From: an uncultured delta proteobacterium
GTDB lineage: Bacteria; Desulfobacterota; Desulfobacteria; Desulfobacterales; UBA2156
Assembly: GCA_963736855.1 (NCBI GenBank)
Contig: CAVTQK010000021.1
Span: 687,464 to 751,463 of the forward strand
Direction of reading: 5' to 3'
DNA: 64,000 bases
In this document: piece after piece, positions 4,527 to 19,899 of the stretch
Layout: the number at the start of each line of letters is the position of its first letter
How positions within the stretch are numbered: the first letter of the stretch is position 1
Notes under the pieces: generated by a model
What the model was told of the DNA's origin: nothing
Seen by the model: the letters and a program-made list of their open reading frames with translations, nothing else
Database searches by the model: none
Position numbers and translations under genes: made by a program

Positions 4527-7500
4527 TTAAACCTCATTGAGTTTTACCCAGACGCGAACCCATTCGCTGATCCCCCATGCCTGCGCATCGCATCCGCGCT
4601 GGGCATGGGGGAAATCGCCGTCAACAATCTCCGGCATATGCCCGACACATCCCCGGTTCAACAGGCGCATGACACTTGAAAGCCAGGCTGCGGCAGCGGC
4701 TTTTCCCGTCTCTTGATAGACCATGGCATACGCTTCGCAAAAGGATGGAAACTGCCAGGTCCATCCTGTGCCGTTGTGATAGGCTGGCTTTCGCCGGGTG
4801 TCTTCATCCCCCTCGTATCGCCCCTGATAGGGCCGATGGGGATCGTTGAGCAGTCGGCCCTGATAAACAACGCTAAGGGGCCTTTCCAGTGTTCGATCCG
4901 CCAAGCTCCGGATAGCACCCGGCACCAGGAGCTCCCGACAGGCGTTCAGGGTCCCGACAGCAGTTTTTAGGTCTTGAACCAAGCCCAGGGTAATCGAAAA
5001 AAGCTGGTTGGGTCGAAGTGCATCGTCCTGTTCGGCGTGGTTAGCCCCTTTCCCCGGTTTCCCGTGAAGGCAATCGGATAGATATCCCTTTTCCTGGAGC
5101 GCAAATAACCGGTGAACGGAGGTGCGTACTTGCCGAGCCAAGTCCTTAAAGCGCTTTTTCTCTTTTGAAGGAGCGATTTGAAAAAGAAAGGCCAGGGCGG
5201 CATACCATAGCGCCTGGATCTCAATGGGATACCCTTGTCTCGGGGTCCCGGCCGGGTAATTGGTATCCATCCAGGTAAAATGAGCCGGGCTGAAAATCAA
5301 CCCGGTTTCATCATCCATCCGGATTCCGTTTGGCGTGCCCCGAATATAGGCCTTTGCAATGGAAAGTAAAATTTCTCTTACGGTTCTGTCCCCGCAGACC
5401 GTTTTCAGGAAACGAGAACTTTTTTCAGCCTGCATCAAATCCCTGCACGCCACGGCAAACCATAAGGGAGCATCCGACGTGTCCCGATTGGCCGGTCCTT
5501 GTTCACCGATCATGTTGGGCAGCGTCCCCTGGGACTCAAACCGGCCGAACTGATAGAGGATGGATCGTGCGGCATCGAGCATCCCAGCCGCAATGAGCCC
5601 ACGGCTGAAAATCAGGGAATCACGTCCCCAGTCCAGAAACCACGGATATCCAGCAATCACCGTCTTTCCCTGGTCCCTCTCGACGATATAATGATCCATG
5701 ATTCGGATCATTTGCCCCAACAGGCTTTTTTCTTTCAGATCCTGGCTGAGTTTCTCTTCTGTATTTTTGCGTAATATGTTCTCGCCACCCGAATCCGGCT
5801 TATTCTTTAAAGGTCCAGCCTCACCGATCAGCGTCACCCCCTGCCCGCCTTTGAGCTTGGCGGTAAAGTAACCCGGACTGAACAGATCGGAATTCGGATC
5901 CTGCCCGCGCTGAGCCTCCTGGAATCGATGAACCATATAGTGCCACTCCGGTTCGTGTACATAACGTCCGGAAAAAATTTTCATGGATAGAACATGGTGC
6001 CCGTCCGGCTGAAAAAGAAACCCTTCGGCTTGAGGCGTAACCGCCTGCGGCCAGTGGTGCTCAGGCCCCATAAAGGCCTTAATGACATCGTGGCAGGACC
6101 GGCTTTCGATGTCCGGCCTTAAAATGAGAGTCACCGGTTCGTCATCCGAAAGGCCGCCACCACCTTCCACGGATTGTTCCCTGATAATGACCATCCGGGT
6201 CTGGTTTTGACCGTCCAGCATGGAAAGTGCGATACGGACCGTTACATGCTTCCCCAAACCGGTGGGGACTTTAAATCGCCAAACGCCCTTGAATGGGTCC
6301 TCCAATCGAAATGAATCCATGCAGGTGGCGCTGATTTCCTGCGAGTAGTCCTGGAACACGATCCACCCCCGACACCGAGACCATAGGATCCATCGGTCCG
6401 AAGGTCGCTTTGGATTAAGGTTTGCCGCCAGAAGCGCATCGTATCGGCTGGTCAGCTTTCCCCATTCTACCGGAGCCCGCAGCATCCCACCGCAACCGTT
6501 CGTGGTCAAAAAATACGGGGGTGTGTTGAAGTCCAAATCCTTCCGCCGGAGCGCTATTTTCAAGGATGCTGCCTCCGGTCGACTCAGGTATAGCAAAGGA
6601 GCTTCCATCCGTTTGGCACCTTCCGGCAAATAGACGGAAAGGTGTAGTATGTACGGCATATGATGCCGGGGTGCAGGCAAGGGTGTAAAAAGGGCGAACC
6701 GGCCTCCGCCCGGACCCGGAAGGCTGTCTTCTACCGCCACCACGCGCATCCCCCGTTTGATCAGTACTCGGAAATGGGCCGGTGCCCAGACCAGCAGAAA
6801 ATGTCCCGGAGGAAGCATCACTTCCCGGTTAAGATCCTGGGGCCATCTCCAGGGAATGATCCGGGATTCGGTCTTTTGAGGGTTCAAGCTCCGACAAAAC
6901 TCCTCGGGATCTTTACGAAACTCCGCAACGGCTGCATCCACATTCATGTCACCCAGGTCCACATCCCCGTTAAAATGGTGCCACACATCAAGAACCTTTG
7001 CCCTCAGGCGTTGGAAAACGATGCGTTCCGGTTCCAGCAAGTTTTCTTTTCTCTCCGATTCAATGAGTGTGTGATCATCGAAATCATCGGAAAAACAAAG
7101 CACTTGACCCGGATCCAGGTCAAACTCGGCCCACTCCTCCCTGACCCGGATATGGACTTTTTTTCCGGTGAGCAAATCTAGAAGTGTGTCCCCTTTCATA
7201 GAGGCTTCGGCACGTTTCCACCGGGCGTAAGCGGATTTGTGATCGTCCAGGTTGGCCACAATCAAAAGCCTTTTATCTGTGGAGGGATGGAAGCGGCATA
7301 TAACAAGGCAGTTTCCTTGACCTCCTTGAATCATCCTCAGTCGGACGTCGTCGAAAAACGCGGGGTGCTTTCTGAGAATGCATGAAAGCCTTGCGATTTC
7401 CGCCGTCTGATTGGGAGAACCGCCCCAGTTAAGGGATCGGGCCTCATGGACGTCGATCTTTTCACGGGCATACCACTCTACACCATTGGCAAACGCAAAT

Positions 7501-8966
7501 CCGCCCTGGTGAGAAAGGAGGGCGCAGAGGGCTGTCCGCATCTTTGCCCAAACTGTGGATCGGGAGGCCAACCGGTTATTATCGTGAGTTTCCGCATAAT
7601 GGACCAGGATCCCATCGCTTTTTGAAATCTCGAATACACCGGGAAGATATCCCTCAATCTGATGTCGGTCGTAATTCTGGAAGAGTTCCGAATAAGCCCA
7701 ATTGAAATTGGCCAAATTGAGCAGATCACGGGTGACCGATATTTTACCACCCAATCCTTCAAGGAAGAAAAGAGAATCGGGAAACTGCTCCCGCACTACC
7801 GCCACCAGATATCTCCAGGCCGTCACCGAGATCATATACCCGGCATCGCATCGGAATCCGTCCACACCCCGCTGGCACCAGGTCAAGAAGACCCCGCCCA
7901 TGTATTCCCACAACCTCTTTTTGGAGTAATCCAGCTTGGTGAGATCTTCCCATTGCACACCCCAGGCGCCCGGTACCTCGATGAGGCCGTCTTCGGTGCG
8001 GCTCAGCCACTCCGGATGCGTATCATGAAGAATAGCCGCCCATCCGGTGTGATTGATGGCGATATCGAGGATCAGCTTAGCCCCCCGTGCATGGATGGCA
8101 TCGACAAGTTCCATAAATTGTTCCGTGGGTGTGGCCTTTGGATCGAATTTGGCCAGAGACGGATCTACTGTAGTAAAGCTCAGTGCAGCATACGGGCTTC
8201 CGAATCGCCCCATCCGTCTATAGGTTGTGGGGGTCGGGTTAATGGGAAGCAGTTGAATAAACCGGCATCCCAGCTCGCCGATGATGAAGTCAAGATGGGA
8301 AATCAAATCCCTGAAAGTCCCTGAAGGTGGAATGACCGAAAATCCCGCACGGTCCAGCCTCTGAACATCGGCATCCGCTTCCGGACTGAAAAAACCGCCG
8401 CTGATATTAGGCCCGAACTGGCGCACAAAGGCGTTGTAAATCGTGTTGGCACAGACCGTGTCGGCCGGTTCCACATTAACGGAGAGGTTGTCTCCTGCCG
8501 GCCAGACAGGATCCAGGGTCGATGCGGGAAGGAAAAACGCTTTGGCCTCGAAATGCCCCACTTCACAGATCGGGAGGGTGATTTTGAACCGACCGCCATC
8601 CAACGGCGTCATCGGAATATCGAACCAATCCTGGGCAAGAGGCGGCTCGTTGAAGTGCACCTCCCGGATGGTCTCCCTTCTCATTCTGTCGGCATGGCCG
8701 ATGTTGGTTCGCAGGTATGCCTTTCCTTGCTCAGGTCTTGGAAGGGTTAAGAAAACCATCAGGGTATCCCCCCTGAATTTAACCATCCGCGTACCCGGTG
8801 TGGGATCCTGTTCAACAAAAATCGGTTCCGGATTCACATTATCTCCCAATTCAAAGCGCTCTTTTCTCTTTGAAGGTGCTCCAAAAACATGCGTGAAAAC
8901 CTTATCATCCACTCTCTTTGATATCAAGAGTCCGGAATAATCTTCTGGAACCGATGCAAAACACAA
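4527..8966 (-). CDS. large glycogen debranching enzyme-like protein (GH13 transferase-like half + amylo-alpha-1,6-glucosidase half)
   Basis: 1479-aa ORF. The N-terminal half has GH13 catalytic regions (VDGFRCDAGY, YAETHDN). The C-terminal half has GDE_C-type strings (AGYPWFLDWGRDS, GYPIEIQALWY, YHNGTGWTWQ). Domain order and size resemble eukaryotic AGL-type debranchers. Confidence 0.75.
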   Translation of the reverse strand: MCFASVPEDYSGLLISKRVDDKVFTHVFGAPSKRKERFELGDNVNPEPIFVEQDPTPGTRMVKFRGDTLMVFLTLPRPEQGKAYLRTNIGHADRMRRETIREVHFNEPPLAQDWFDIPMTPLDGGRFKITLPICEVGHFEAKAFFLPASTLDPVWPAGDNLSVNVEPADTVCANTIYNAFVRQFGPNISGGFFSPEADADVQRLDRAGFSVIPPSGTFRDLISHLDFIIGELGCRFIQLLPINPTPTTYRRMGRFGSPYAALSFTTVDPSLAKFDPKATPTEQFMELVDAIHARGAKLILDIAINHTGWAAILHDTHPEWLSRTEDGLIEVPGAWGVQWEDLTKLDYSKKRLWEYMGGVFLTWCQRGVDGFRCDAGYMISVTAWRYLVAVVREQFPDSLFFLEGLGGKISVTRDLLNLANFNWAYSELFQNYDRHQIEGYLPGVFEISKSDGILVHYAETHDNNRLASRSTVWAKMRTALCALLSHQGGFAFANGVEWYAREKIDVHEARSLNWGGSPNQTAEIARLSCILRKHPAFFDDVRLRMIQGGQGNCLVICRFHPSTDKRLLIVANLDDHKSAYARWKRAEASMKGDTLLDLLTGKKVHIRVREEWAEFDLDPGQVLCFSDDFDDHTLIESERKENLLEPERIVFQRLRAKVLDVWHHFNGDVDLGDMNVDAAVAEFRKDPEEFCRSLNPQKTESRIIPWRWPQDLNREVMLPPGHFLLVWAPAHFRVLIKRGMRVVAVEDSLPGPGGGRFALFTPLPAPRHHMPYILHLSVYLPEGAKRMEAPLLYLSRPEAASLKIALRRKDLDFNTPPYFLTTNGCGGMLRAPVEWGKLTSRYDALLAANLNPKRPSDRWILWSRCRGWIVFQDYSQEISATCMDSFRLEDPFKGVWRFKVPTGLGKHVTVRIALSMLDGQNQTRMVIIREQSVEGGGGLSDDEPVTLILRPDIESRSCHDVIKAFMGPEHHWPQAVTPQAEGFLFQPDGHHVLSMKIFSGRYVHEPEWHYMVHRFQEAQRGQDPNSDLFSPGYFTAKLKGGQGVTLIGEAGPLKNKPDSGGENILRKNTEEKLSQDLKEKSLLGQMIRIMDHYIVERDQGKTVIAGYPWFLDWGRDSLIFSRGLIAAGMLDAARSILYQFGRFESQGTLPNMIGEQGPANRDTSDAPLWFAVACRDLMQAEKSSRFLKTVCGDRTVREILLSIAKAYIRGTPNGIRMDDETGLIFSPAHFTWMDTNYPAGTPRQGYPIEIQALWYAALAFLFQIAPSKEKKRFKDLARQVRTSVHRLFALQEKGYLSDCLHGKPGKGANHAEQDDALRPNQLFSITLGLVQDLKTAVGTLNACRELLVPGAIRSLADRTLERPLSVVYQGRLLNDPHRPYQGRYEGDEDTRRKPAYHNGTGWTWQFPSFCEAYAMVYQETGKAAAAAWLSSVMRLLNRGCVGHMPEIVDGDFPHAQRGCDAQAWGISEWVRVWVKLNEV

Positions 8967-9174: not shown

Positions 9175-10632
9175 TCAAACTTGGTAACTTCTTTGTACCG
9201 CCCCCCATTTCTCTTGCGCGGTGGTGTTCTCACCCCAGGTATCAGCTCGTTCAGCAAAATTACTGACGACGCGAAAAGCTTCTTCACCGGTATTTACGAT
9301 CGTGTAAATATAGAGGTCTTTTTCTGATATCGCACCCGCTTTTTCATATAACACTTTGTGATGATAATCATGGATCGGGTCCCAATACCGGTTGCGGATC
9401 AAAACGATCGGCATAGGATCGATCTTCTTAGTCTGGATCAAAGTCAAGACTTCATAAAAAAGATCGAGTACTCCCGCACCGCCCGGGAAGTACACGATAC
9501 CGTAATTCGTATGTTCGACAAGCGCAATCTTCTGAGAGAAGATATCGTGGAAATTGCAACAGGTATCCGTGTCAGTCTCGCATCCTTCATTATCTTTATA
9601 GTAATTGAACGCGAATAGCCTGGCCTCCGGGTGGTCGGCAAACCGCGCACCTCGGGCAATCGCCTCGGATATGGTATAATTATTACGATATAATAGAGAG
9701 ATCCCCTTCTGCGCAAGTTTGAATGCCAGATCCTGAGCTTCGTTGTAGGAATGAGCGTCTTTTCTGATGTGCTGGCCGCCGATGATGCTGATCGTCCGCT
9801 CGATATTCGTTCGATTAATCAGAACTGCCGCGGTATAGAGTTCTCCGATCGCTCTCTCCGCCCAACTATCTTTGATCTTTTTCAATAGGTACTGCAAATG
9901 TGCCTTGGTATCTATTTGTTTCTCCATGACTTTAAAATAGCGTAATACTTGTTCCGGAGTGTTAAGCAAAACAAAGTTTTTGCCTATAGGCTTACGGATA
10001 AGCGGAATCTGATCGTGGTGCGCGATGGACTCTTGACGCAGCTTTTCCAGATACCACAACCAGAACGAATAAAACTCTCTATCCAATAATATGATTGGTG
10101 CGGTATCTTTCTCTTCTTTGTCTTTTAAAATGAGCCGCTCAAAAAACTCAGCCATAGTCCCGTATCCGCCGGGTGCGGCAATGAAGGCGTTGCTGAAATA
10201 ACGGAAAGTCATTTCTCGCGAAAAGAAATAATCAAACATAAACGTCTGGGTCGCAAAGGGATTCACTTTCTGTTCTTTAGGCAGTTCGATCCCCAAAGCG
10301 ATCGATTCCGCTCCGCTTGCTCTTCCTCCTCTATTTCCAGCCTCCATAATACCCGGGCCACCGCCGGTGATGATTATCGCTCCCAGTTCTTTCGCTAAAT
10401 AGAGTGCGGCTTTATATGCTTTTTCGTACATCTGCATACCGAAAACGACTTTGGGATCTTTTATATCCGCAGCCGGGTCGTCGAAAGCTTTAAACCGAGC
10501 TGATCCATAGATCGCAATTCGCAACGCCACAGTCGGATTTTGCCGTAAGTATTCATAAAACAGCATCAACTCTTCCAGAGCTTTTTCCAGATTAAGGAAT
10601 CGATAGCGCTTAAGAGCATTATTATTCTGCAT
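9175..10632 (-). CDS. tandem LOG-family (TIGR00730 / lysine-decarboxylase-like) protein
   Basis: 485 aa. The first half has ITGGGPGIMEAGNRG and PGGYGTMAEFFE (LOG PGGxGTxxE motif). The second half repeats the fold (FPGGAGVLDLFYEVLTLIQTKK). Confidence 0.7.
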   Translation of the reverse strand: MQNNNALKRYRFLNLEKALEELMLFYEYLRQNPTVALRIAIYGSARFKAFDDPAADIKDPKVVFGMQMYEKAYKAALYLAKELGAIIITGGGPGIMEAGNRGGRASGAESIALGIELPKEQKVNPFATQTFMFDYFFSREMTFRYFSNAFIAAPGGYGTMAEFFERLILKDKEEKDTAPIILLDREFYSFWLWYLEKLRQESIAHHDQIPLIRKPIGKNFVLLNTPEQVLRYFKVMEKQIDTKAHLQYLLKKIKDSWAERAIGELYTAAVLINRTNIERTISIIGGQHIRKDAHSYNEAQDLAFKLAQKGISLLYRNNYTISEAIARGARFADHPEARLFAFNYYKDNEGCETDTDTCCNFHDIFSQKIALVEHTNYGIVYFPGGAGVLDLFYEVLTLIQTKKIDPMPIVLIRNRYWDPIHDYHHKVLYEKAGAISEKDLYIYTIVNTGEEAFRVVSNFAERADTWGENTTAQEKWGAVQRSYQV

Positions 10633-10685: not shown

Positions 10686-10952
10686 ATGAATTGTGTTTCA
10701 CAATAATCTGCACACCAAAATATGGAAACGCACAATGGTTATGACTTATGTATTTTCGATTATCCGAAGGCGAATTCACTGTCAATTAGAATTGTGTCGT
10801 CAAGATATCGGCGGTGGACCCCTCTTTAGATAGTTGAAAATTCACAAGCTACAACAACTGCAGGTTCCTATATCTTGGGGTGCAGATGATGGCAAAACAC
10901 AATTTATATTTGCATTTAACACAACCGTAAAAAAGCGACTTTCTGCTATCAG
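10686..10952. mobile_element. MITE-like element: ~40-bp terminal inverted repeats of the IS91-relic end repeat flanking ~140 bp
   Basis: 10686-10725 ATGAATTGTGTTTCACAATAATCTGCACACCAAAATATGG is the reverse complement (36/40) of the repeat at 11926-11965. A forward copy lies at 10867-10907, with the conserved tail ...AAAAAAGCGACTTTCTGCTATCA reaching ~10952. No ORF lies between the arms. Confidence 0.5.
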
Positions 10953-11338
10953 TCCATAGTGTGCCACCATTTCATGCAAAATATATTGTTCGGCTTATAC
11001 GGATGCGTCCCCTCAATCACTTCAACCCCTGCTTTTGCCTTTATCTTCTTTATTATCGTCTCGCTATAGGGGCAATGATCGACAATGCATGGGCCGATGT
11101 GAACCTTAGTCACCTTTTCATTCATCGGTTTGTTCCAGAGATTAATCTGAGCAAGCCGAGTGACAATGGTTGCTCCGGGGCAGTCTCCGCAATTCAAAAG
11201 CCCTATCATCTGTGCATCCGAATCCTTGTATCTGGCAAACTCTCCCTCTCTCCGATTAAACCCGACCATGCAGCGGCTGCAACCGATACAGACATCATCC
11301 ATTGCTTTTTTACAGCCAACAATCAGAATTTTTTCCAT
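10949..11338 (-). CDS. CGGC domain-containing protein
   Basis: 129 aa, Cys-rich (CIGCSRC, LNCGDCPG, GPCIVDHCPY), with the layout of the CGGC-domain family. Assignment is from memory of the family. Confidence 0.6.
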   Translation of the reverse strand: MEKILIVGCKKAMDDVCIGCSRCMVGFNRREGEFARYKDSDAQMIGLLNCGDCPGATIVTRLAQINLWNKPMNEKVTKVHIGPCIVDHCPYSETIIKKIKAKAGVEVIEGTHPYKPNNIFCMKWWHTMD

Positions 11339-11554: not shown

Positions 11555-12007
11555 GAGCGATTCGGGTTTTTTATTGAGAAAACATGTCTCCCAATTGATC
11601 TGAAACGACTCCCCAGGCCAGTCGCCCGTGCCCCGTCTTTGATTGAATTTCCGACATATGACGATGCCTTCCCGCCTTCCATCGATGATTACGTCGCCTA
11701 CCCAGTCTCCCCCATGGATGCTTTCTCTTAAAAAAAACCGGTCGGCGCTGACTCGCCCTGCCTGTGCGATGCACCTGTCTGCGTCGCGAACGCGACAGGC
11801 AGGCACAGACAGGTGGCCTATGCCCAAATTGGCCAAAATAACGGCCTCTTGCCGATAAAATTCCGATTGACAGCACGTCACCTTCGGATTATTGAAAAAC
11901 CATACACCATGACAACTGTGGGTTTCCATATCTTGGAGTGCAGATTACGGTGAAACACAATTCATTCTCGCTCTTGAACCGTCCACAAAAAAACGGGTCC
12001 TTATCAA
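11555..12007 (+). mobile_element. IS91-family relic 1 (last ~45 codons of the transposase plus 3' terminal region)
   Basis: Translation ...GFFIEKTCLPIDLKRLPRPVARAPSLIEFPTYDD parallels relic 2 (...DVIKKILKHLNLWDPKRPERLVDHASPLIESPTYDD). DNA collinear with 13270-13580 includes the 85-bp terminal repeat (11926-12007). A ~59-bp palindromic insertion sits at 11757-11815. Confidence 0.6.
11867..11895 (+). promoter_or_regulatory. sigma70-like outward promoter motif in relic 1 (TTGACA-17-TATTGA)
   Basis: TTGACA at 11867-11872, a 17-nt spacer, then TATTGA at 11890-11895. The same arrangement is conserved in relic 2. Confidence 0.3.
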
Positions 12008-12634: not shown

Positions 12635-13580
12635 AATAGGGATACATTTTTACCGCCCTTTCCGTAAAAGACGGCATTTTTGCCCTTCCTGTCATCAGAA
12701 GCGCGTGGTGGAATTCGTTGAATGGCAATGCGGCAATATCATCAAGCCGTGCCGCCTGTCTGCGTGCGGCGCACAGTCAGGCACCGGAATCTGGTGATGA
12801 GTATTCCGAAGATCCTCAGAGATATTTTTTCTATAACCGGAAGCTGTTATCCGAGTTAAGCCGCTGCGGGTGGGAAAGTCTGAAGAGCTGTTTCAGTGTC
12901 GTTTCACGGGATTCGAAGGCGGTCCCCGGCTCTGCCATCGCCATTCATTAACGCTCTGAAGCATCTTGCCGCCATGACCTACCATGTTCTGCAGTTACCT
13001 ATCCTACGGCAGACGCAAAAAAGTCGGAACGGACGGGATTGTCCCCTGCCTGCTCGAACAGGAAACGACCGATGTTCAGTTCCGGAAAAATTGGTCACGC
13101 CTGATTCAAAAAATATATGAGGTCGATCCCCTGGTCTGCCCTAAGTGCCGGGGAAAAATGCGGGTGGTTACATTCATCGAAGATCCGGACGTAATCAAAA
13201 AAATACTCAAACACTTGAACTTATGGGATCCGAAACGACCGGAAAGGCTCGTCGACCATGCCTCGCCTCTGATTGAATCCCCAACATATGATGACCCCGT
13301 TACAGCCTTCCACAGACGGTTACCGTCGCCGACCCGGTTTATCTCATGGATGCTTACTCCTAAAAACCGGTCGGCGCTGCTCCGTTGGAATATACCCAAA
13401 TCGGCCGAGATAATGACCTTTTGCCGATGAAAACCCGTTTGACAGCTCACCCGTCTTTTGTTAATTAAAAACACATCCGCCACGACACCTGTATGTTCCC
13501 ATATCTTGGGGTACAGACAATGGTAAAACACAATTCATCCTCACCATTGATCCGTCCGCAAAAAAGCGACTTCTAATCAA
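12635..13580 (+). mobile_element. IS91-family relic 2: 5'-truncated, frameshifted, internally deleted transposase pseudogene plus 3' terminal repeat
   Basis: Three frames carry recognisable pieces. (1) FRKRRHFCPSCHQKRVVEF, the IS91 Zn-binding region. (2) IPKILRDIFFYNRKLLSELSRCGWESLKS...VPGSAIAIH. (3) WSRLIQKIYEVDPLVCPKCRGKMRVVTFIEDPDVIKKILKHLNLW, the C-terminal Zn ribbon. The terminal repeat is at 13499-13580. Confidence 0.7.
13439..13467 (+). promoter_or_regulatory. sigma70-like outward promoter motif in relic 2 (TTGACA-17-TAATTA)
   Basis: TTGACA at 13439-13444, a 17-nt spacer, then TAATTA at 13462-13467. It lies about 160 nt upstream of the ERCC4 gene on the same strand. Confidence 0.3.
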
Positions 13581-13628
13581 AAATATTTTCGTGTGGTTCG
13601 TGTGTTTAGTGGTTGAAAGATTTGTGAT

Positions 13629-14309
13629 ATGAAAACAGACACCCCCATCGAAATCATCGCCGATGACCGGGAGCAGAAAAGCGATGTCATCCGGTTGTTA
13701 TCTGAGATTGACAATGTCGATGTTCAGATAGGACGGCTTTCTATTGGCGATTATAAGATCGATAACCGGCTGATTGTGGAAAGAAAGACATTAAAAGACT
13801 TTGCCATATCCATTATCGATGGCAGGTTGTTCAAGCAATCGATTCGCCTGACTAATTCCCATCTGAAAGGGGTAATGATACTTGAAGGTTCAGCCAAAGA
13901 CACCGCTGATTTGGGCGTGACCAGAGAGGCCATGCAGGGCGCATTGATTACCATTTCAGTGTTATTGGGGATTCCGGTTTTACGGGCAATTGATGCCACC
14001 GAAACGGCAAAGCTCATGGTGTATATGGCGCAACAGATTAAACGCATAGCCAATGACGGCATTCAACGGCAGGGATATCGACCCAAGAGCAAACGAAAGC
14101 GGCAGCTTTACATCTTGCAGGGATTGCCGGGAATTGGCTATGAAAGAGCCGTCCGACTTCTGGATGCCTTCGGCAGTGTGGAAGGGGTTGTTTCCGCAAG
14201 CAGTGAAGAATTACAGATTATAGATGGCATAGGCGAAAAGATTGCTGAAAAGATCAAATGGGCGGTTAGCGAACAGATTTTACCCTATGGTTTTATTGAC
14301 AAAAACTAA
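13629..14309 (+). CDS. ERCC4 (XPF/Mus81-type) nuclease with C-terminal (HhH)2 domain
   Basis: 226 aa. Has ADDREQ, IGDYKI and VERKTLKDF (GDxn-ERKxxxD signature). The tail GLPGIGYERAVRLL...IDGIGEKIAEKI gives two helix-hairpin-helix motifs. Confidence 0.85.
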   Translation: MKTDTPIEIIADDREQKSDVIRLLSEIDNVDVQIGRLSIGDYKIDNRLIVERKTLKDFAISIIDGRLFKQSIRLTNSHLKGVMILEGSAKDTADLGVTREAMQGALITISVLLGIPVLRAIDATETAKLMVYMAQQIKRIANDGIQRQGYRPKSKRKRQLYILQGLPGIGYERAVRLLDAFGSVEGVVSASSEELQIIDGIGEKIAEKIKWAVSEQILPYGFIDKN

Positions 14310-14384
14310 TATATCGGCTCTGTAAGTGCTTTATGAGAATAAATACAGTGGTATTAAATTATTATCCGGGAGTCAAAAAAAGAT

Positions 14385-16310
14385 ATGTTGAAGCAACATC
14401 TGAAAAAGTACTTCGGATTTGATTCGTTTTTAAAGGGGCAGGAAGGGGTCATTCAAAGAATTCTGGATGGGAATTCCGCGGTTGCCATCTTCCCTACCGG
14501 AGCAGGTAAATCTTTGTGTTATCAATTACCGGCTATGATGCTTCCCGGTTTAACCCTGGTGGTATCTCCCCTGTTGTCCCTGATGAAGGATCAACTGGAT
14601 TTTCTGCTGGAAAACCATATTCCCGCCGCGCGTCTGGATTCCACCCTTGATAAGGCTGAATATAACGCTGTTCTTGAAAGGGCCAAAAACAATGAATTGA
14701 AAATCCTGATGATATCCGTTGAACGGTTTAAAAATGAATGCTTTCGTTTCCATCTAGAACGGATGAACGTTTCCCTGCTGGTTATTGACGAAGCCCATTG
14801 CATTTCCGAGTGGGGGCACAATTTCAGGCCGGAGTACCTGAAACTACCGAATTATCAAAAGGAATTCAAAATCATGCAAACTTTACTGCTCACTGCAACC
14901 GCGACAAAGCCGGTCATTGATGATATGTGTGCAAAATTCAACATTCCCAAAAAAAATGTATCAGTTACCGGTTTTTATCGAAACAATCTGTTTATTCAAA
15001 TTACACCGATTGGCACATCCGAAAAAAAGCAATACCTGCTAAAGCGTATTCTTGAAACACCCGACGCATCCATGATTGTCTATGTAACCCTTCAAAAAAC
15101 AGCCGAAGCGGTTTCGGATTTTCTTCGCGAAAACAACATCAACTCCCACGCATATCATGCCGGAATGGAAAATAAGGAACGAGAACTGATCCAAAACCGG
15201 TTTATGGAAGGAACGGTCTCCTGTATCGTTGCCACTATTGCCTTCGGGATGGGCATCGATAAGAAAGACATCCGCAGGATTATTCACTACGATTTGCCCA
15301 AATCGATTGAAAACTACAGCCAGGAAATCGGACGATCCGGAAGAGATAAAAAGCCTGCATTGTGCGAAGTTCTGGCCAATCGGGACAACATCCATATTCT
15401 GGAAAATTTTATCTATGGGGATACACCGGAAAAGCAATCGATTGTTCAGTTGCTTCAAACCATAAAGAAAAATCCGGGCTTTGTATGGGAAATAAGGGAA
15501 ATGAGGCTTTCAAATGACCTGAATATCCGGTTGCTGCCCTTGAAAACGTTATTGGTTTATCTTTCCATGGAAAAGATTATCCGTCCCAAACTTTCATACT
15601 TTGAATTCTATTCCTTCAAGTACAGGACAGAACCGGAAAATATTATCAACCGGTTTGAAGGGGAAAGGAAACAGTTTGTACAATCGGTCATCAACCACTG
15701 TTTTACCAAGAAAGTATGGACGGATGTGGATATTCAAGCCGTTATAAACAGCTACCATACGGATCGGGAGCGAATTCTCGCCGCGTTGGATTACTTCGAC
15801 GAGAAGGGCTGGATCGAACTTCAAGCCAGACAGTCCGTGGAAGTGTATGATATTTTAACCCAGGCCTTTGATATCGAAACTGTAACCAATAAAATGTTTT
15901 CCCTGTTTAAAAAGAAGGAGCAACTTGAAATTCAAAGAATTCATCACATGATCCACTTTTTCGAAAGTGATACATGTGTCAGTAAAAAGCTTGCCGGATA
16001 TTTCGGGGAGCACCTGGAGAAGGAGCGCTGTGGTCATTGCTCTTTTTGTAAAAGCGGAAAAGCGGTGTTAATTCAAAATACCGAATTGAAGCCGATTGCT
16101 CATTTCGATTTTAAAACGATTATCCATGAATTTAAAAATGCTATAAGAGATCAATTTTCAGACACCAGTTTAACAAAATTTCTCTGCGGGATTTACACAC
16201 CGGTTTTTTCCAGTTTAAAAATCAAAAACCTGTCCTATTTCGGTGTTCTTGAAAATTATCATTTTATGGAGGTACAAAACTGGGTTAAAGATCAAATGAA
16301 GTTACAATAA
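14385..16310 (+). CDS. recQ: RecQ-family ATP-dependent DNA helicase
   Basis: 641 aa. Has FPTGAGKSLCYQLPA, VIDEAHCISEWGHNFRPEY, TATAT, helicase-C (IATIAFGMGIDKKDIR...QEIGRSGRD) and a C-terminal CGHCSFC motif. Confidence 0.85.
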   Translation: MLKQHLKKYFGFDSFLKGQEGVIQRILDGNSAVAIFPTGAGKSLCYQLPAMMLPGLTLVVSPLLSLMKDQLDFLLENHIPAARLDSTLDKAEYNAVLERAKNNELKILMISVERFKNECFRFHLERMNVSLLVIDEAHCISEWGHNFRPEYLKLPNYQKEFKIMQTLLLTATATKPVIDDMCAKFNIPKKNVSVTGFYRNNLFIQITPIGTSEKKQYLLKRILETPDASMIVYVTLQKTAEAVSDFLRENNINSHAYHAGMENKERELIQNRFMEGTVSCIVATIAFGMGIDKKDIRRIIHYDLPKSIENYSQEIGRSGRDKKPALCEVLANRDNIHILENFIYGDTPEKQSIVQLLQTIKKNPGFVWEIREMRLSNDLNIRLLPLKTLLVYLSMEKIIRPKLSYFEFYSFKYRTEPENIINRFEGERKQFVQSVINHCFTKKVWTDVDIQAVINSYHTDRERILAALDYFDEKGWIELQARQSVEVYDILTQAFDIETVTNKMFSLFKKKEQLEIQRIHHMIHFFESDTCVSKKLAGYFGEHLEKERCGHCSFCKSGKAVLIQNTELKPIAHFDFKTIIHEFKNAIRDQFSDTSLTKFLCGIYTPVFSSLKIKNLSYFGVLENYHFMEVQNWVKDQMKLQ

Positions 16311-16345
16311 AAAAATCATTGAAAGTTTAAAACATCAATTTTCCT

Positions 16346-18721
16346 ATGGCAAAAACAAAAATACAAAAAGCAAAAAGAAAAAGCAAAATAAAAACCCACC
16401 GGAAAACAGCGGTTGCATCTGTTCGATCAGAAAAAGCAGACTTTTATTATTGGGAATATGAAAGCTATTTTGAATCCAGGAACCTCGATAAGGCGTTGGC
16501 AAATTTAAAAAAGGCTATCAAGATTCAACCCAACAATGCGATGTTTCTTGAACAAATGGTTCGACTGGGTTTCGCAATGGATAACAATGATGTTCAATTG
16601 TCCGGGCTTTCAGCGCTTTATGAAAGCGGGCAAATGGAAAAGGACTATTTGCTGTTTTATTTAGACTCCCTGATCATAGGCAAAAAATATCTGCTGGCCT
16701 TAAATATTGCAGAGAAATTGCTGTCCCAGCTTGACAAAATGAAGGTTAAAAACAAACTGAAACTCAGGAAAGCAATCATACAGAATAAGGAATACTGTCA
16801 GTATCATCTGAAAATCGAGCGTATACTGAAAACTGCACCTGAAAAAGCCCATCAAAAACCTTCGTCACCAAAAAAGGAGAAACCAGGTTATTTATCTTCA
16901 AAGCCTGTTCCTCAGGAACACAAAGTGGGGAAAATATCAAACCTTCCACTCATCAAACCAGATCATCATGAAAAGAAAAATCCTGTTCAGGATATTCCGG
17001 TTACTTTTCTCCTTGATGAAAATTCTTTTATACTTCCTTTTTCTAATAATCAGTTGATGACTTATTCACAATATGAACTGGCTCTGGAAGGGCATTGCAT
17101 TCGGTTCAGAGATTCGTATGAGAACCTGATCTGTCTCAACAGTCTGCATAACATTCAGTCTCTCTGGTATCAGGAAGAAACGGCAAGAAAGGTTCTGAAA
17201 AGCTTTCGGGGCCGCGCCCTTCTGTCCGACGAAGTGGGATTGGGAAAAACCATCGAAGCCCTTATCATTTTAAAAGAATATATCAAAAGAGGCATTGTTA
17301 AAAATGCCTTGATCCTGACCCCTGCAACCCTTGTCAGCCAGTGGCAGGAAGAGTTGCAGACCAAATTCGGGCTTTATTTTTCATCTACCGATGACCCAGA
17401 TTTTCATAAAAAGGGAGTACAATTTTGGGAAGCCCCTTACATCCTTGCCTCTATTAATCAAGCCAAATCCAAACGAAATTACGATGAGGTTATCCAAAGA
17501 GAGTATGACATGGTGATTATAGATGAAGCGCACCATTTTAAAAATAAAAATACACTGAGCTGGAAACTTGCCAATTCCCTAAAAAAGCGATTTCTTCTTT
17601 TGTTAACAGCAACACCGGTGGAAAATAACCTGATGGAGCTTTATAATATCATCACCCTGTTAAAGCCCGGCCAGTTGAAAACCGCATCGGCATTTCGCAA
17701 GGAATTTATGACCAGAGGCGACCCCACCGGACCTCAAAACCGCAGCCGGTTGAAGGAACTACTGGGTCAGGTAATGATTCGGAATACTAGGGCTCTGGCG
17801 CAAGTCGGTATTCCCCCAAGGTTTGCACAGACTCTGCGGATAAAATCTGGGGCAAACGAAAGAATGTTATACACCCGGATTACGGATCTGGTTTTGCATG
17901 TTCATAAAGCTGATGGTAACAGCGGGAACACGCTTTTGCTTAAAAATCTACTTGCTGAAGCCGGCTCATCTCCCAGAGCGGTGGAACTGACTTTACAACG
18001 CGTTCTTTCTAAAAGAGATTTTTTGTGGGATTATGAAAAAGAGATAAAAGCTATTCATAATTTATGCCGTACTATGGGGGATACGGAAAAAAATAAGGCA
18101 TTGCACCATCTCATCACATCAACCAATGGAAAAAAAATCATTTTCGTTAAATACCTTGGAACTCTGGATCATATATCAGAATTCTTATCCTGGAATAATT
18201 TTTCCCATGTTATTTTCCATGGGGGAATGAATCACGTTCAAAAGGATGAAGCCATCAACATCTTTCGTGAAGAAAAAGATCTCCTCATTACAACAGAAAT
18301 CGGCGGCGAGGGACGGAATCTTCAATTCTGCCACCAGATGATCAATTATGATCTTCCCTGGAATCCCATGAAAATTGAACAAAGGATCGGCAGAATCCAC
18401 CGTCTCGGACAGAAAAATGAGGTGATGATTTATAATTTATGTGCAGCAGATAGTATTGAGGATTACATTCTGGATATTCTGGACCGGAAAATCAACATGT
18501 TTGAAATGGTTATCGGTGAGATTGATATGATTATAGGTCGCATCCAAGAGGAAAAGGAATTTCCCGATATGGTATACGATATCTGGATAAATGCAGCATC
18601 CGATATCGAGCGAAAACAAGGTTATGACCAGCTTGCCATACAACTGAAACGGTCTAAGGAACAATACGAGAAGACCAAAATTCTGGACCAAAAGCTTTTT
18701 GGAGAAAATTTTGAACTTTAA
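16346..18721 (+). CDS. SNF2-family helicase with Lys-rich/TPR-like N-terminal extension
   Basis: 791 aa. Has DEVGLGKTIEA, IIDEAHHFKN, LLLTATPVENNLMELYN and YDLPWNPMKIEQRIGRIHRLGQ. Confidence 0.85.
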   Translation: MAKTKIQKAKRKSKIKTHRKTAVASVRSEKADFYYWEYESYFESRNLDKALANLKKAIKIQPNNAMFLEQMVRLGFAMDNNDVQLSGLSALYESGQMEKDYLLFYLDSLIIGKKYLLALNIAEKLLSQLDKMKVKNKLKLRKAIIQNKEYCQYHLKIERILKTAPEKAHQKPSSPKKEKPGYLSSKPVPQEHKVGKISNLPLIKPDHHEKKNPVQDIPVTFLLDENSFILPFSNNQLMTYSQYELALEGHCIRFRDSYENLICLNSLHNIQSLWYQEETARKVLKSFRGRALLSDEVGLGKTIEALIILKEYIKRGIVKNALILTPATLVSQWQEELQTKFGLYFSSTDDPDFHKKGVQFWEAPYILASINQAKSKRNYDEVIQREYDMVIIDEAHHFKNKNTLSWKLANSLKKRFLLLLTATPVENNLMELYNIITLLKPGQLKTASAFRKEFMTRGDPTGPQNRSRLKELLGQVMIRNTRALAQVGIPPRFAQTLRIKSGANERMLYTRITDLVLHVHKADGNSGNTLLLKNLLAEAGSSPRAVELTLQRVLSKRDFLWDYEKEIKAIHNLCRTMGDTEKNKALHHLITSTNGKKIIFVKYLGTLDHISEFLSWNNFSHVIFHGGMNHVQKDEAINIFREEKDLLITTEIGGEGRNLQFCHQMINYDLPWNPMKIEQRIGRIHRLGQKNEVMIYNLCAADSIEDYILDILDRKINMFEMVIGEIDMIIGRIQEEKEFPDMVYDIWINAASDIERKQGYDQLAIQLKRSKEQYEKTKILDQKLFGENFEL

Positions 18722-19775
18722 TACCGGCTATTCACTGGAACAATTTGCCATTCGTTTCTTTGAGTCAAACGGCGCTGAGATAGAAAAATGTCCCGATGGA
18801 CTGGAAATCCTATTGCCCGAGGAACTTGCCTTGCGGTTAAATACGCCTGAATACCTGCGCATTCCAACAGGAAAAGATGTTGAAGGTGCACAGGAAAAAT
18901 TTACACTCCATTATGGCTCTTCCCTTCTTGAAAAAATGGTGGATGCAGCTTGTAGGAACGTACCACTGATTCGATGCCGCCTGAATTTCAATTATATTAA
19001 ACGCGAGGGATTCGACCGGTTGATTCAGGATCAGTTTGTTTTTCACAATGCCGCAGGTAAGGTACAAAGTACAGCCGAAGTGCGAACCGAATATCTGCTA
19101 TTAAACTGCCGGTATTTGGCTCAAAGCGATGAACAAAAAGAAGGGCTTGTTGCCCTCACATTCAATCTTGAATCCGGTGCGCAAGTTTCAAATATGGACA
19201 GGATGATCAACACCGTTGATAAAACATTTGAGACAGATTCCAAACAAATCCTTCTGGAAGATCGAAAGATTAATGCGGTGTTGACATGGGTTCAACGTCA
19301 TGCGGGACGGATCCTTGGAAGTGAAATCAAACCTTTTCAGGAAAGCATGAACAGAAGATATCAACGGGATGTGGCGAACCTTGAAGAATATTATGAAGAC
19401 TTGAAGAAGGAAATGGAGGAAAATTTAAAGCGTTCAGGTCTTTCGGATCAACTGATTTCGGACCGTAAAGCAAAAATTAGTATGATTCCGAATGAATTGG
19501 AGATGAAAAAAGAGGACCTCTTTAATAAATACAGCATCCGGGTCAAACTTGATCTTTGCGGCGGCATATATATCCGAACACCGGCGATGAAGATATTGTA
19601 CCAGATATCCTTTGGCAAGAAACAAAGGCAGTTATCGATGATATTCAACCCTGTCACCAAATCGTTGGATCCTCTGGTCTGCGAAGGTTGCGGCGACAGC
19701 ACATTCAACATCAGTTTCTGTAAACATCTTCATACCCTTTGTCCTGTATGCAGAGGAAATTGTCCGGTTTGCTGA
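18699..19775 (+). CDS. hypothetical protein with C-terminal multi-Cys zinc ribbon, translationally coupled to the SNF2 gene
   Basis: 358 aa from TTG 18699. An alternative start is TTG 18711, with GGAG at 18701-18704. It overlaps the SNF2 stop (18719-18721). There are seven Cys in the last 31 aa (CEGCGDSTFNISFCKHLHTLCPVCRGNCPVC). No other motif recognised. Confidence 0.6.
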   Translation: MEKILNFNTGYSLEQFAIRFFESNGAEIEKCPDGLEILLPEELALRLNTPEYLRIPTGKDVEGAQEKFTLHYGSSLLEKMVDAACRNVPLIRCRLNFNYIKREGFDRLIQDQFVFHNAAGKVQSTAEVRTEYLLLNCRYLAQSDEQKEGLVALTFNLESGAQVSNMDRMINTVDKTFETDSKQILLEDRKINAVLTWVQRHAGRILGSEIKPFQESMNRRYQRDVANLEEYYEDLKKEMEENLKRSGLSDQLISDRKAKISMIPNELEMKKEDLFNKYSIRVKLDLCGGIYIRTPAMKILYQISFGKKQRQLSMIFNPVTKSLDPLVCEGCGDSTFNISFCKHLHTLCPVCRGNCPVC

Positions 19776-19899
19776 ACAAGTTCAACATTTACTGTTCGAA
19801 AGGAAACAAGGTCGTCTAAGTACTTTCAATCACCTCAAGTAATAGAGAGTCGGATTAACCGGGTGTCATTTTAATAGTCATTGAAACATTTACCTTTAC

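Follow-up and report, generated by a model that had tools for sequence, protein, structure and literature searches.

Four genes on the forward strand of a DNA stretch from an uncultured Desulfobacterales bacterium (64,000 nt, below called the window) encode an ERCC4 nuclease, a RecQ helicase, a SNF2 ATPase and a cysteine-rich protein (13629-19775). An earlier note had described them as one compact module that could be either an undescribed defence system or a fork-repair set. The question is thus whether the four genes form a single system, and of which kind. Our preferred answer, to which we assign a probability of about 0.6, is that two separate two-gene units, each conserved on its own, lie side by side here, ERCC4 with RecQ (unit A) and SNF2 with ORF4 (unit B), and that they are not a dedicated four-gene system. 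Most likely, the cluster serves genome maintenance and lies on a recently moved low-GC segment, rather than being a new anti-phage system.

Products of the four genes

All four genes are intact. As had been noted, they are co-directional, with gaps of 75 and 35 nt and then one overlap, that of the SNF2 gene with ORF4 (Table 1), and the ERCC4, RecQ and SNF2 motif assignments were confirmed by Pfam domains.

Table 1. Features of the cluster and of its surroundings (window coordinates).
Feature	Position	Strand	Description
ORF1, candidate short XPF/Hef-type nuclease	13629..14309	+	226 aa; ERCC4 domain and C-terminal (HhH)2
ORF2, predicted RecQ-family helicase	14385..16310	+	641 aa; Pfam DEAD/Helicase_C and RecQ_Zn_bind
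ORF3, predicted RapA/HepA-like Swi2/Snf2 ATPase subunit	16346..18721	+	791 aa; Pfam, profile search, AF2
ORF4, putative YqhG-family partner subunit	18711..19775	+	reading frame open from TTG 18699 (18699-19775, 358 aa)
Coupling junction	18701..18721	+	GGAG 18701-18704, TTG 18711, SNF2 stop TAA 18719-18721
Shared block	13210..19837	.	blastn; shared with metagenome contigs L007/L008 (97.7% nucleotide identity); composition
Local repeat family copy	12793..13586	.	blastn; upstream of ERCC4; ORFs without Pfam match

The ERCC4 domain of ORF1 scores 77.1 bits (cutoff 24) and is followed by a (HhH)2 tail (HHH_5 48.4, HHH_2 36, each above its own cutoff). The catalytic GDY...ERKTLKD is intact and aligns with Aeropyrum pernix XPF (GDXn-ERKX3D type), to which ORF1 matches over its full length (2bgw/2bhn, E 1.7e-29). 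The best NCBIfam model is the C-terminal part of the Hef nuclease, NF010337. The scores lie below the archaeal Xpf/Hef equivalog cutoffs (NF040956, 101.5 versus 300; NF010337, 179.7 versus 610). Thus by domain tests, and not at the equivalog level, ORF1 is a candidate short-form XPF/Hef-type ERCC4 nuclease.

ORF2 passes the TIGR00614 recQ_fam model (363.9 bits, cutoff 219.8) and contains RecQ_Zn_bind (41.5, cutoff 25), but falls short of the RecQ equivalog TIGR01389 (421.7 versus 640.2). In an alignment with E. coli RecQ, residues 3-327 correspond to its residues 14-336, and residues 512-556 to 361-404. The core is of the canonical type; some 180 inserted residues separate the helicase C domain from the zinc-binding motif. 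Neither HRDC nor WH/RQC domains were found in ORF2 by Pfam at E<=0.01. Judging by these equivalog and domain tests, the protein is a predicted member of the RecQ family and not a canonical bacterial RecQ.

ORF3 contains SNF2-rel_dom (121.6 bits) and Helicase_C. A TPR-like helical region (approximately residues 20-163) and a disordered Lys/Pro-rich linker (approximately 164-300) precede the ATPase core (approximately 275-790). The best solved relative of the family profile (A3) is RapA (2.9e-47), the next SNF2 protein scoring 3.9e-36. In BLASTP, ORF3 622-778 aligns to RapA 532-678, and ORF3 ends at approximately RapA residue 680. The AF2 model of ORF3 is poor (pLDDT 60).

ORF4 had been said to have nothing recognisable except seven cysteines within its final 31 residues. 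The cysteines are indeed there in the translation. The rest of this claim has to be withdrawn: the protein passes the gathering score of Pfam YqhG, albeit marginally (PF11079, 27.6 bits versus 25, E 1.7e-6, residues 13-241), and its model is RapA-like. Only three of 27 diverse ORF4 relatives match YqhG at E<=0.01, and few members of the family reach its gathering score. The likely start is TTG 18711; starts of homologues align to position 5 of the reading frame. The predicted order is a degenerate REase-like alpha/beta domain, then a beta-sheet into which two long helices are inserted, and finally a zinc ribbon of the CxxC...CxxC type, whose C328, C331, C348 and C351 are invariant across relatives with 21-49% identity. 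In a Foldseek search with the AF2 model (pLDDT 84.3), four RapA structures were the only significant PDB fold matches (E 4e-6, probability 1.00). Alignment of ORF4 with the RapA sequence by hhalign was not significant (probability 0.2), and Pfam RapA_C was not detected in ORF4 even at E<=10. The link of ORF4 to RapA is thus one of predicted structure. The Foldseek output comes without aligned RapA residues, and therefore the RapA Spacer and CTD are tentatively placed in ORF4 by secondary-structure order.

Since the ORF4 model matches RapA, and the ORF3 profile is closest to RapA and ends where that part begins, ORF3 and ORF4 look like a RapA-type enzyme in two chains, extended by a TPR head and a zinc-ribbon tail. 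Unit B would then be a Swi2/Snf2 enzyme of the RapA/HepA type whose two chains are translationally coupled and presumably form a complex. ORF3 would supply the ATPase core behind the TPR-like head, and ORF4 the counterpart of the RapA post-ATPase module (the degenerate REase-like Spacer and the beta-sheet/coiled-coil CTD) together with the zinc ribbon. If RapA and Bacillus HepA/YqhH are a guide, this enzyme may translocate at the expense of ATP, engage RNA polymerase or DNA, and remove complexes that have stalled or remain after termination.

Two gene pairs and their link

Unit B is the conserved core of the cluster. At virtually all of 80 GTDB species loci, the gene directly upstream of the ORF4 homologue encodes a full-length SNF2 homologue (52-73% identity). 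The SNF2 stop lies within the ORF4-family reading frame in 80/80, in the same relative frame each time. Among these approximately 80 relatives the pair is almost universal and stands without ERCC4 or RecQ. The pair also occurs on plasmids of Rhodovastum, Nostoc and Chondrocystis, where the SNF2 partners have 522-569 aa and do not contain the first approximately 250 residues of ORF3. No phage or viral copies of the pair were found.

ERCC4 and RecQ form a recurrent pair of their own, separate from SNF2 and ORF4. In three loci (L106, L107, L108) the RecQ orthologue (76-80% identity) directly follows ERCC4 (70-75%), and no orthologous SNF2/YqhG-like pair was found at these loci. In one MAG the two units are on different contigs (L106 and L041). 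One locus has ERCC4 alone (L094). In the literature searched we found no description of a bacterial ERCC4-RecQ pair. In archaeal Hef, helicase and nuclease activities reside within one protein. Unit A, an XPF/Hef-type structure-specific nuclease paired with a RecQ helicase, would bring together the same two activities: the helicase could unwind or remodel branched DNA such as stalled forks, flaps or R-loops, and the nuclease would then cut at the junction. The pair would be a bacterial analogue of Hef.

The complete order ERCC4-RecQ-SNF2-ORF4 was found only in the window's own species, and the idea of one compact module with a conserved gene order is not supported. However, RecQ links the two units in one Desulfobacterales sub-clade. 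In L009-11, RecQ, SNF2 and the YqhG-like gene follow a decayed ERCC4 remnant, the other genes being intact; L111 has RecQ-SNF2-YqhG-like, its contig breaking off within RecQ, and L013 and L019 have the order SNF2-YqhG-like-RecQ. These linkages suggest that units A and B cooperate at transcription-replication sites or at sites of damage.

How much should be read into this linkage? At one extreme, the RecQ-bridged cluster could be one machine. The two-chain RapA-like remodeler would dock on RNA polymerase that has stalled or has passed termination, and would recruit the Hef-like RecQ/XPF helicase-nuclease to act on the R-loop, lesion or fork beneath. If true, bacteria would have a counterpart of the eukaryotic transcription-coupled repair set CSB / XPF / RECQL5. 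Alternatively, the same machine would be turned on invading DNA. We consider one such machine rather improbable. At the other extreme, the adjacency could be fortuitous: rearrangement would have assembled the genes, or the two pairs, on a mobile low-GC segment, and the pairs would not cooperate in function. Each pair stands alone in most genomes, and in L009-11 ERCC4 has decayed beside intact genes. Promoter and terminator scans revealed nothing beyond chance that would mark the four genes as a single operon, and no conserved operator was found upstream of the ERCC4 orthologues. On the other hand, several lineages have an orthologous RecQ next to the SNF2/YqhG-like pair, in one of two orders (the window, L007, L009, L111, L013, L019), always co-directionally and with short gaps; with several thousand genes per genome, chance would hardly produce this. 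A merely accidental adjacency thus also seems quite doubtful to us.

A relocated low-GC block and the possibility of defence

The low-GC setting of the cluster was reproduced by a composition scan: GC content is 0.36-0.47 across approximately 9-20 kb (0.41 for the four genes) versus 0.52-0.58 on the flanks. The block is not only compositionally foreign in this genome, as had been proposed, but has also moved, as its chromosomal place differs from that in a 97.7%-identical strain. To either side of the shared block, the flanks are unlike those in L007/L008; the break on the right comes 62 nt past the ORF4 stop, and there the GC content is back to 0.53. In L007, copies of a local repeat family are located on both sides of the four genes. 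An IS91 relic had been suggested upstream of ERCC4. The relic is not supported at the protein level: no ORF of the 11.5-13.6 kb region has a Pfam match even at E<=1. By blastn the sequence upstream of ERCC4 is instead one copy of this repeat family. The accompanying TTGACA-17-TAATTA is present (13439-13467), but promoter-like sites in the region are not above the shuffled expectation (17 versus 13.9 +/- 3.9). The neighbouring ORFs in the window encode a LOG/SLOG-like protein, a CGGC-domain protein, proteins of unknown function, a MobA-like protein and xanthine-dehydrogenase subunits.

The low-GC, relocated state of the block in this window counts against genome maintenance. It would fit an undescribed anti-phage or anti-plasmid module, in which the SNF2/YqhG-like motor senses foreign DNA or translocates on it, and RecQ and ERCC4 degrade it. 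The same is true of the RapA-like architecture shared with BrxHII of BREX type 3, and of some of the surroundings. Type I R-M genes, an AAA_15/AAA_21 ATPase with its partner and TA genes adjoin ERCC4-RecQ in L107/L108, TIR proteins and type I R-M genes lie near the SNF2/YqhG-like pair in L003/L005, and TA and integrase genes adjoin its plasmid copies. The genes flanking the pair also vary greatly among species. However, the pair is not generally located in defence islands. Its recurrent neighbours are mostly housekeeping genes (the commonest being ABC ATPase, aldehyde dehydrogenase, ComEC, ThiF, acyl-CoA ligase, RarA and a FadB-like enzyme), and in other genomes its composition is not foreign (a mean GC difference of +0.016 across 73 loci). 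Among the approximately 80 relatives the four genes do not travel as a set, the proteins are highly conserved (66-83% identity for ERCC4 among the best 120 of 2437 homologues), and the Bacillus counterpart is chromosomal and linked to UV and MMS tolerance.

Searches for known defence systems point in the same direction. As the earlier note had it, the genes match no named system: PADLOC and NCBIfam assign none of them to one. ERCC4 has no PADLOC match at all, and the matches of the others are not system-specific but generic, since RecQ and RapA of E. coli, which are housekeeping proteins, reach equal or better scores on the same profiles. The NCBIfam defence equivalogs are all far below their cutoffs (DrmD, 225.3 versus 950 and 213 versus 610; ZorD, 73.6 versus 1500; DpdE, 181.4 versus 500; DpdF, 203.3 versus 550). 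Among the neighbouring ORFs in the window we found no methylase, DUF1998, PLD, PglZ, DrmA/B/C, ZorAB or PsyrA; the absence of DISARM and Zorya companions had been observed before. A helicase and nuclease cluster on a low-GC patch is insufficient for calling a defence system. Of the two functions originally considered, the evidence favours a fork-repair set, whereas support for defence is circumstantial, and we regard a defence module as unlikely.

Comparison with known systems

The SNF2 and helicase genes of the window resemble BrxHII, DrmD, ZorD, DpdE/DpdF and PsyrT at the superfamily level, and the RapA-like C-terminal domains predicted for unit B are shared by BrxHII. The curated cutoffs for DISARM, BREX type 3, Zorya, Dpd and PsyrTA are not reached, and their companion genes are missing. 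For ORF1, the closest known proteins are archaeal Hef and short XPF, together with eukaryotic FANCM and XPF-ERCC1. The likeness consists in the full-length alignment with A. pernix XPF, the ERK motif and (HhH)2. In Hef the helicase is fused to the nuclease, whereas in the window, which comes from a bacterial host, the adjoining gene encodes a separate RecQ-family helicase and not a Hef-type SF2 helicase.

E. coli RapA (HepA) is an RNA polymerase-recycling Swi2/Snf2 ATPase. It is the closest solved relative of the ORF3 ATPase core and the sole significant structure match of the ORF4 model. RapA and ORF4 have a degenerate REase-like domain and a beta-sheet with two long inserted helices in the same order, and the published domain order of the RapA/BrxHII C-terminal domains fits ORF4 (PMC12839542). 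However, the predicted enzyme of the window is split over two polypeptides, the Spacer/CTD-like module being on a separate ORF4; the tandem Tudor N-terminus of RapA is replaced by the TPR-like domain and disordered linker; and ORF4 carries an additional zinc ribbon at its C-terminal end. The score for the RapA equivalog NF003426 is 202.6 at a cutoff of 576.

In B. subtilis, yqhH and yqhG are neighbours (PMC6123443), and YqhH is regarded as the HepA/RapA homologue (PMC7385302). A yqhH knockout of B. thuringiensis is UV-sensitive (PMC10054049), and Bacillus YqhH has been linked to UV and MMS tolerance (PMC10054049, PMC7385302). Judging by these publications and the Pfam model, an SNF2 gene adjoins a YqhG-family gene in Bacillus as in the window, but the YqhG model (258 positions) spans neither the rest of the second domain of ORF4 nor the zinc ribbon. 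If unit B is indeed a split RapA, the YqhG family, described in Pfam as 'Bacterial protein YqhG of unknown function', would obtain a structural identity. Such a split would also explain why Bacillus HepA/YqhH is so much shorter than E. coli RapA: its C-terminal module would come from the neighbouring gene.

The four genes and their surroundings

The window contains four co-directional genes encoding an ERCC4 nuclease, a RecQ helicase, a SNF2 ATPase and a YqhG-like protein with a zinc ribbon (ORF1 to ORF4). Their layout is as an earlier note described it: gaps of 75 and 35 nt separate the first three genes, and the TAA stop codon of ORF3 (18719-18721) is overlapped by ORF4, which may start at TTG 18699 or TTG 18711, with GGAG at 18701-18704. 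TTG 18711, six bases after the GGAG, is the likely start; when the homologues are aligned, they start at the residue that this codon encodes. Pfam backed the domain calls of that note: ERCC4 with (HhH)2, a RecQ-type helicase that includes the zinc-binding motif of RecQ proteins, and an SNF2 ATPase. ORF4, thought to be unrecognisable, passed the cutoff of the Pfam YqhG family (27.6 bits vs 25). Across its full length, ORF1 matches the short Aeropyrum pernix XPF, whose crystal structure has been solved (E 1.7e-29); the GDY...ERKTLKD motif of ORF1 is unbroken. The RecQ core of ORF2 aligns to E. coli RecQ 14-336, and an insertion of about 180 aa precedes the zinc motif.

The noted low-GC block was borne out, with values of 0.36-0.47 at approximately 9-20 kb and 0.52-0.58 around. 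Besides the four genes, this stretch contains genes of a LOG/SLOG-type and a CGGC-domain protein and several family-less ORFs. Other GC dips are seen at 46-49 kb, 52-54 kb and 58-64 kb, the lowest (0.36-0.39) at 60-64 kb. A tRNA-bounded island was looked for, and there is no tRNA gene within the window; the count of promoters and terminators does not exceed the shuffled expectation. The proposed IS91 relic received no protein-level support, as no ORF in 11.5-13.6 kb has a Pfam match at E<=1. The region carries copies of a local non-coding repeat family for which neither protein families nor curated RNA families account; the only Rfam match, far below threshold and to a miRNA model, falls on an inverted repeat.

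Coordinates of the genes, repeats and neighbouring features
Feature	Location	Strand or arrangement	Remarks
ORF1, ERCC4 nuclease	window 13629-14309	+	
ORF2, RecQ helicase	window 14385-16310	+	
ORF3, SNF2 ATPase	window 16346-18721	+	
ORF4, YqhG-like protein	window 18699/18711-19775	+	
AQSDEQKEG segment of ORF4	window ~19119-19145		aa 141-149
Non-coding repeat, window copies	10686-10941, 11597-12007, 12793-13586	one copy inverted	70-76% identical mutually
Non-coding repeat, copies in L007 (same-species metagenome contig)	196-611, 7346-8096	on either side of the four-gene block	81-90% identical to window copy
LOG/SLOG-type protein, 485 aa	window 9175-10632	-	Lysine_decarbox, LDcluster4; low-GC stretch
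CGGC-domain protein	window 10949-11338	-	low-GC stretch
AAA_15/AAA_21 ATPase, ~550 aa, with small downstream partner	L107 361-2939; L108 5498-7737		few kb upstream of ERCC4-RecQ
Large SNF2 genes near ERCC4-RecQ in relatives	L009 673-5667; L106 11936-18699	L009: -	one antisense SNF2, 1,000-1,150 aa
Short ERCC4-(HhH)2 gene on a large plasmid	NZ_CP017294.1 277122-277832		solitary

Two gene pairs with separate distributions

The four genes had been described as one compact module. Across relatives this dissolves into two pairs with separate distributions. Full-length homologues of ORF4 number in the hundreds, most of them from Desulfobacterales, and a profile search put the family at 977 clusters (50% identity level). 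Eighty species-level loci from GTDB genomes were queried with all four window proteins. In essentially every locus with upstream DNA, a full-length SNF2 homologue (52-73% identity, including the N-terminal region) lies directly upstream of the ORF4 homologue; in 80/80 loci the SNF2 stop is overlapped by the ORF4-family frame, and the relative frame is constant. Orthologous RecQ adjoins this pair in a few close relatives only, and ERCC4 only in the same-species contigs (L007 and L008, 97% identity). The pair is also borne by plasmids of Rhodovastum, Nostoc and Chondrocystis, where the SNF2 partners are annotated as 522-569 aa and match only ORF3 residues ~250-790. It was also seen in MAGs labelled Actinomycetota (L052, L053, L056, L059, L064, L070, L076, L077), where identity to ORF4 is 44-50%. 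Most of these loci have the pair at a GC content (0.40-0.44) above that of the flanks (0.31-0.40); these occurrences could reflect horizontal transfer or mis-binning.

The ERCC4 protein has more than 2,400 homologues, the best 120 of them being 66-83% identical. In three loci (L106, L107, L108) a full-length RecQ orthologue (76-80%) comes straight after the ERCC4 orthologue (70-75%), and the orthologous SNF2/YqhG-like pair is absent. One of these contigs, L106, shares its MAG with L041, a different contig on which the SNF2 and YqhG-like genes lie. ERCC4 without partner genes adjoins MltA-MoaC-MoaE-MobA in L094, and the same genes follow RecQ-SNF2-YqhG-like in L009-11, where the upstream ERCC4 is reduced to a decayed fragment. 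L111 has RecQ-SNF2-YqhG-like in the window order, with the contig end falling inside RecQ, and the order in L013 and L019 is SNF2-YqhG-like-RecQ. RecQ is thus what links the two pairs, in one sub-clade only. Both pairs are units of known kinds, and their juxtaposition is specific to the lineage.

Flanks of the window and L094/L009 share nothing beyond the module genes, no common operator is visible upstream of the ERCC4 orthologues, and a metagenome scan with RecQ gave just six loci, all distant and uninformative. Plasmid records with a more distant short ERCC4 protein (31-35% identity) number 152, of which 136 are from Pseudomonas, mostly megaplasmids; solitary short ERCC4-(HhH)2 genes are thus common on large plasmids (records H7-H21). 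In the two inspected records no RecQ or other helicase adjoins ERCC4, and the neighbours are hypothetical genes.

The AAA ATPase with its small partner recurs in two independent loci; a type I R-M system is present as well in L108, whereas L107 contains a deaminase gene and a toxin-antitoxin pair of PIN/Phd type. Among the large SNF2 genes near ERCC4-RecQ, the antisense one is accompanied in L009 by SEC-C and DUF7685/7686/7713 proteins, and L106 has a DUF3670-SNF2 gene (891 aa) followed by one for a 387-aa protein. These genes may mark a hotspot rich in helicases, or they may be additional SNF2 cassettes of two genes each.

Genome maintenance or defence

We favour a role in genome maintenance (probability approximately 0.6). 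That the block is a defence module seems unlikely, although several features point to defence or mobility: its low GC content in the window, the repeats on both sides of it in L007, and R-M, TA or TIR neighbours at some loci. Moreover, the match to the 97.7%-identical strain is confined to 13210-19837; in that strain and in L111 the block lies beside alaS-recA, whereas in the window it is beside MobA and xanthine dehydrogenase genes. However, in other genomes the GC content of the SNF2/YqhG-like pair is not below that of the flanking DNA (mean +0.016), and among 671 flanking ORFs in the 80 loci no family was found in more than 10 loci, the commonest identifiable ones being housekeeping or metabolic. 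Scans of viral contigs for ORF4 and for ERCC4 gave no matches, nor did phage records searched with ORF4, and no defence companion genes were found among neighbouring ORFs.

The caution of the earlier note about named systems was right. PADLOC and NCBIfam matches are superfamily-level and below cutoffs: there is no system-specific PADLOC match for the four ORFs, and none at all for ERCC4, and all NCBIfam defence equivalogs are far under their cutoffs. Housekeeping E. coli proteins score equally or better on the same profiles: RecQ has 354.1 bits on PsyrT, the ORF2 score, and as many as 1184 on DpdF, and RapA has 176-191 bits on BrxH/DpdE/DrmD. Named defence systems were therefore dropped.

The SNF2/YqhG-like pair and RapA

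With the ORF3 family profile, RapA is the best match among solved proteins (2.9e-47; next SNF2 3.9e-36). In BLASTP, ORF3 622-778 aligns to RapA 532-678, and therefore ORF3 ends where the part of RapA containing the Spacer and C-terminal domains starts. The AF2 model of ORF3 has low confidence, and fold search with it gave generic SNF2 cores.

The AlphaFold model of ORF4 (pLDDT 84.3) has only four significant matches in PDB, and each is a structure of E. coli RapA (E 4e-6 to 2.5e-5, probability 1.00). The match lies outside the N-terminal domain of RapA, because N-terminally truncated RapA is among them. In the model, aa 9-112 form an alpha/beta domain; then come strands at 119-156 and 175-177, a pair of long helices at 207-243 and 250-278, and further strands at 281-317. 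This is the order of elements in the C-terminal domains of RapA and the BREX type 3 helicase BrxHII (PMC12839542); the domains were mapped by that order, as the fold-search output does not contain the aligned RapA residues. The second C-terminal domain was reported to be unique to RapA/BrxHII-type helicases (PMC12839542). The ORF4 strands are followed by the zinc ribbon, whose four cysteines are invariant in relatives with 21-49% identity. Sequence-level proof of the link was sought and failed: hhalign of the ORF4 family profile with RapA was not significant, Pfam RapA_C was absent at E<=10, and a PDB search with the profile gave only zinc-ribbon and RING look-alikes.

The AQSDEQKEG segment is invariant or nearly so in 22 relatives (50-80% identity), and two of its residues, D144 and G149, are still almost unchanged among relatives with 21-49% identity. 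Situated at the hairpin joining two long strands of the second ORF4 domain, the segment could be a functional site.

In E. coli RapA, D744 of the Spacer touches the zinc-binding domain of the RNA polymerase beta' subunit (PMC8501970). In B. subtilis, yqhG adjoins yqhH (PMC6123443), whose product was called HepA/RapA, RNAP-interacting and poorly characterised (PMC7385302); a yqhH knockout in B. thuringiensis is UV-sensitive (PMC10054049). The reading of YqhG-family proteins as a detached RapA C-terminal module is moderately new, as is the recurrent bacterial ERCC4-RecQ pair, no description of which was found in the searched literature. We conclude that ORF3 and ORF4 probably form a RapA-type enzyme in two chains, the link of ORF4 being structural only. 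Compared with RapA, this enzyme would have a lineage-specific TPR-like head and a disordered linker.
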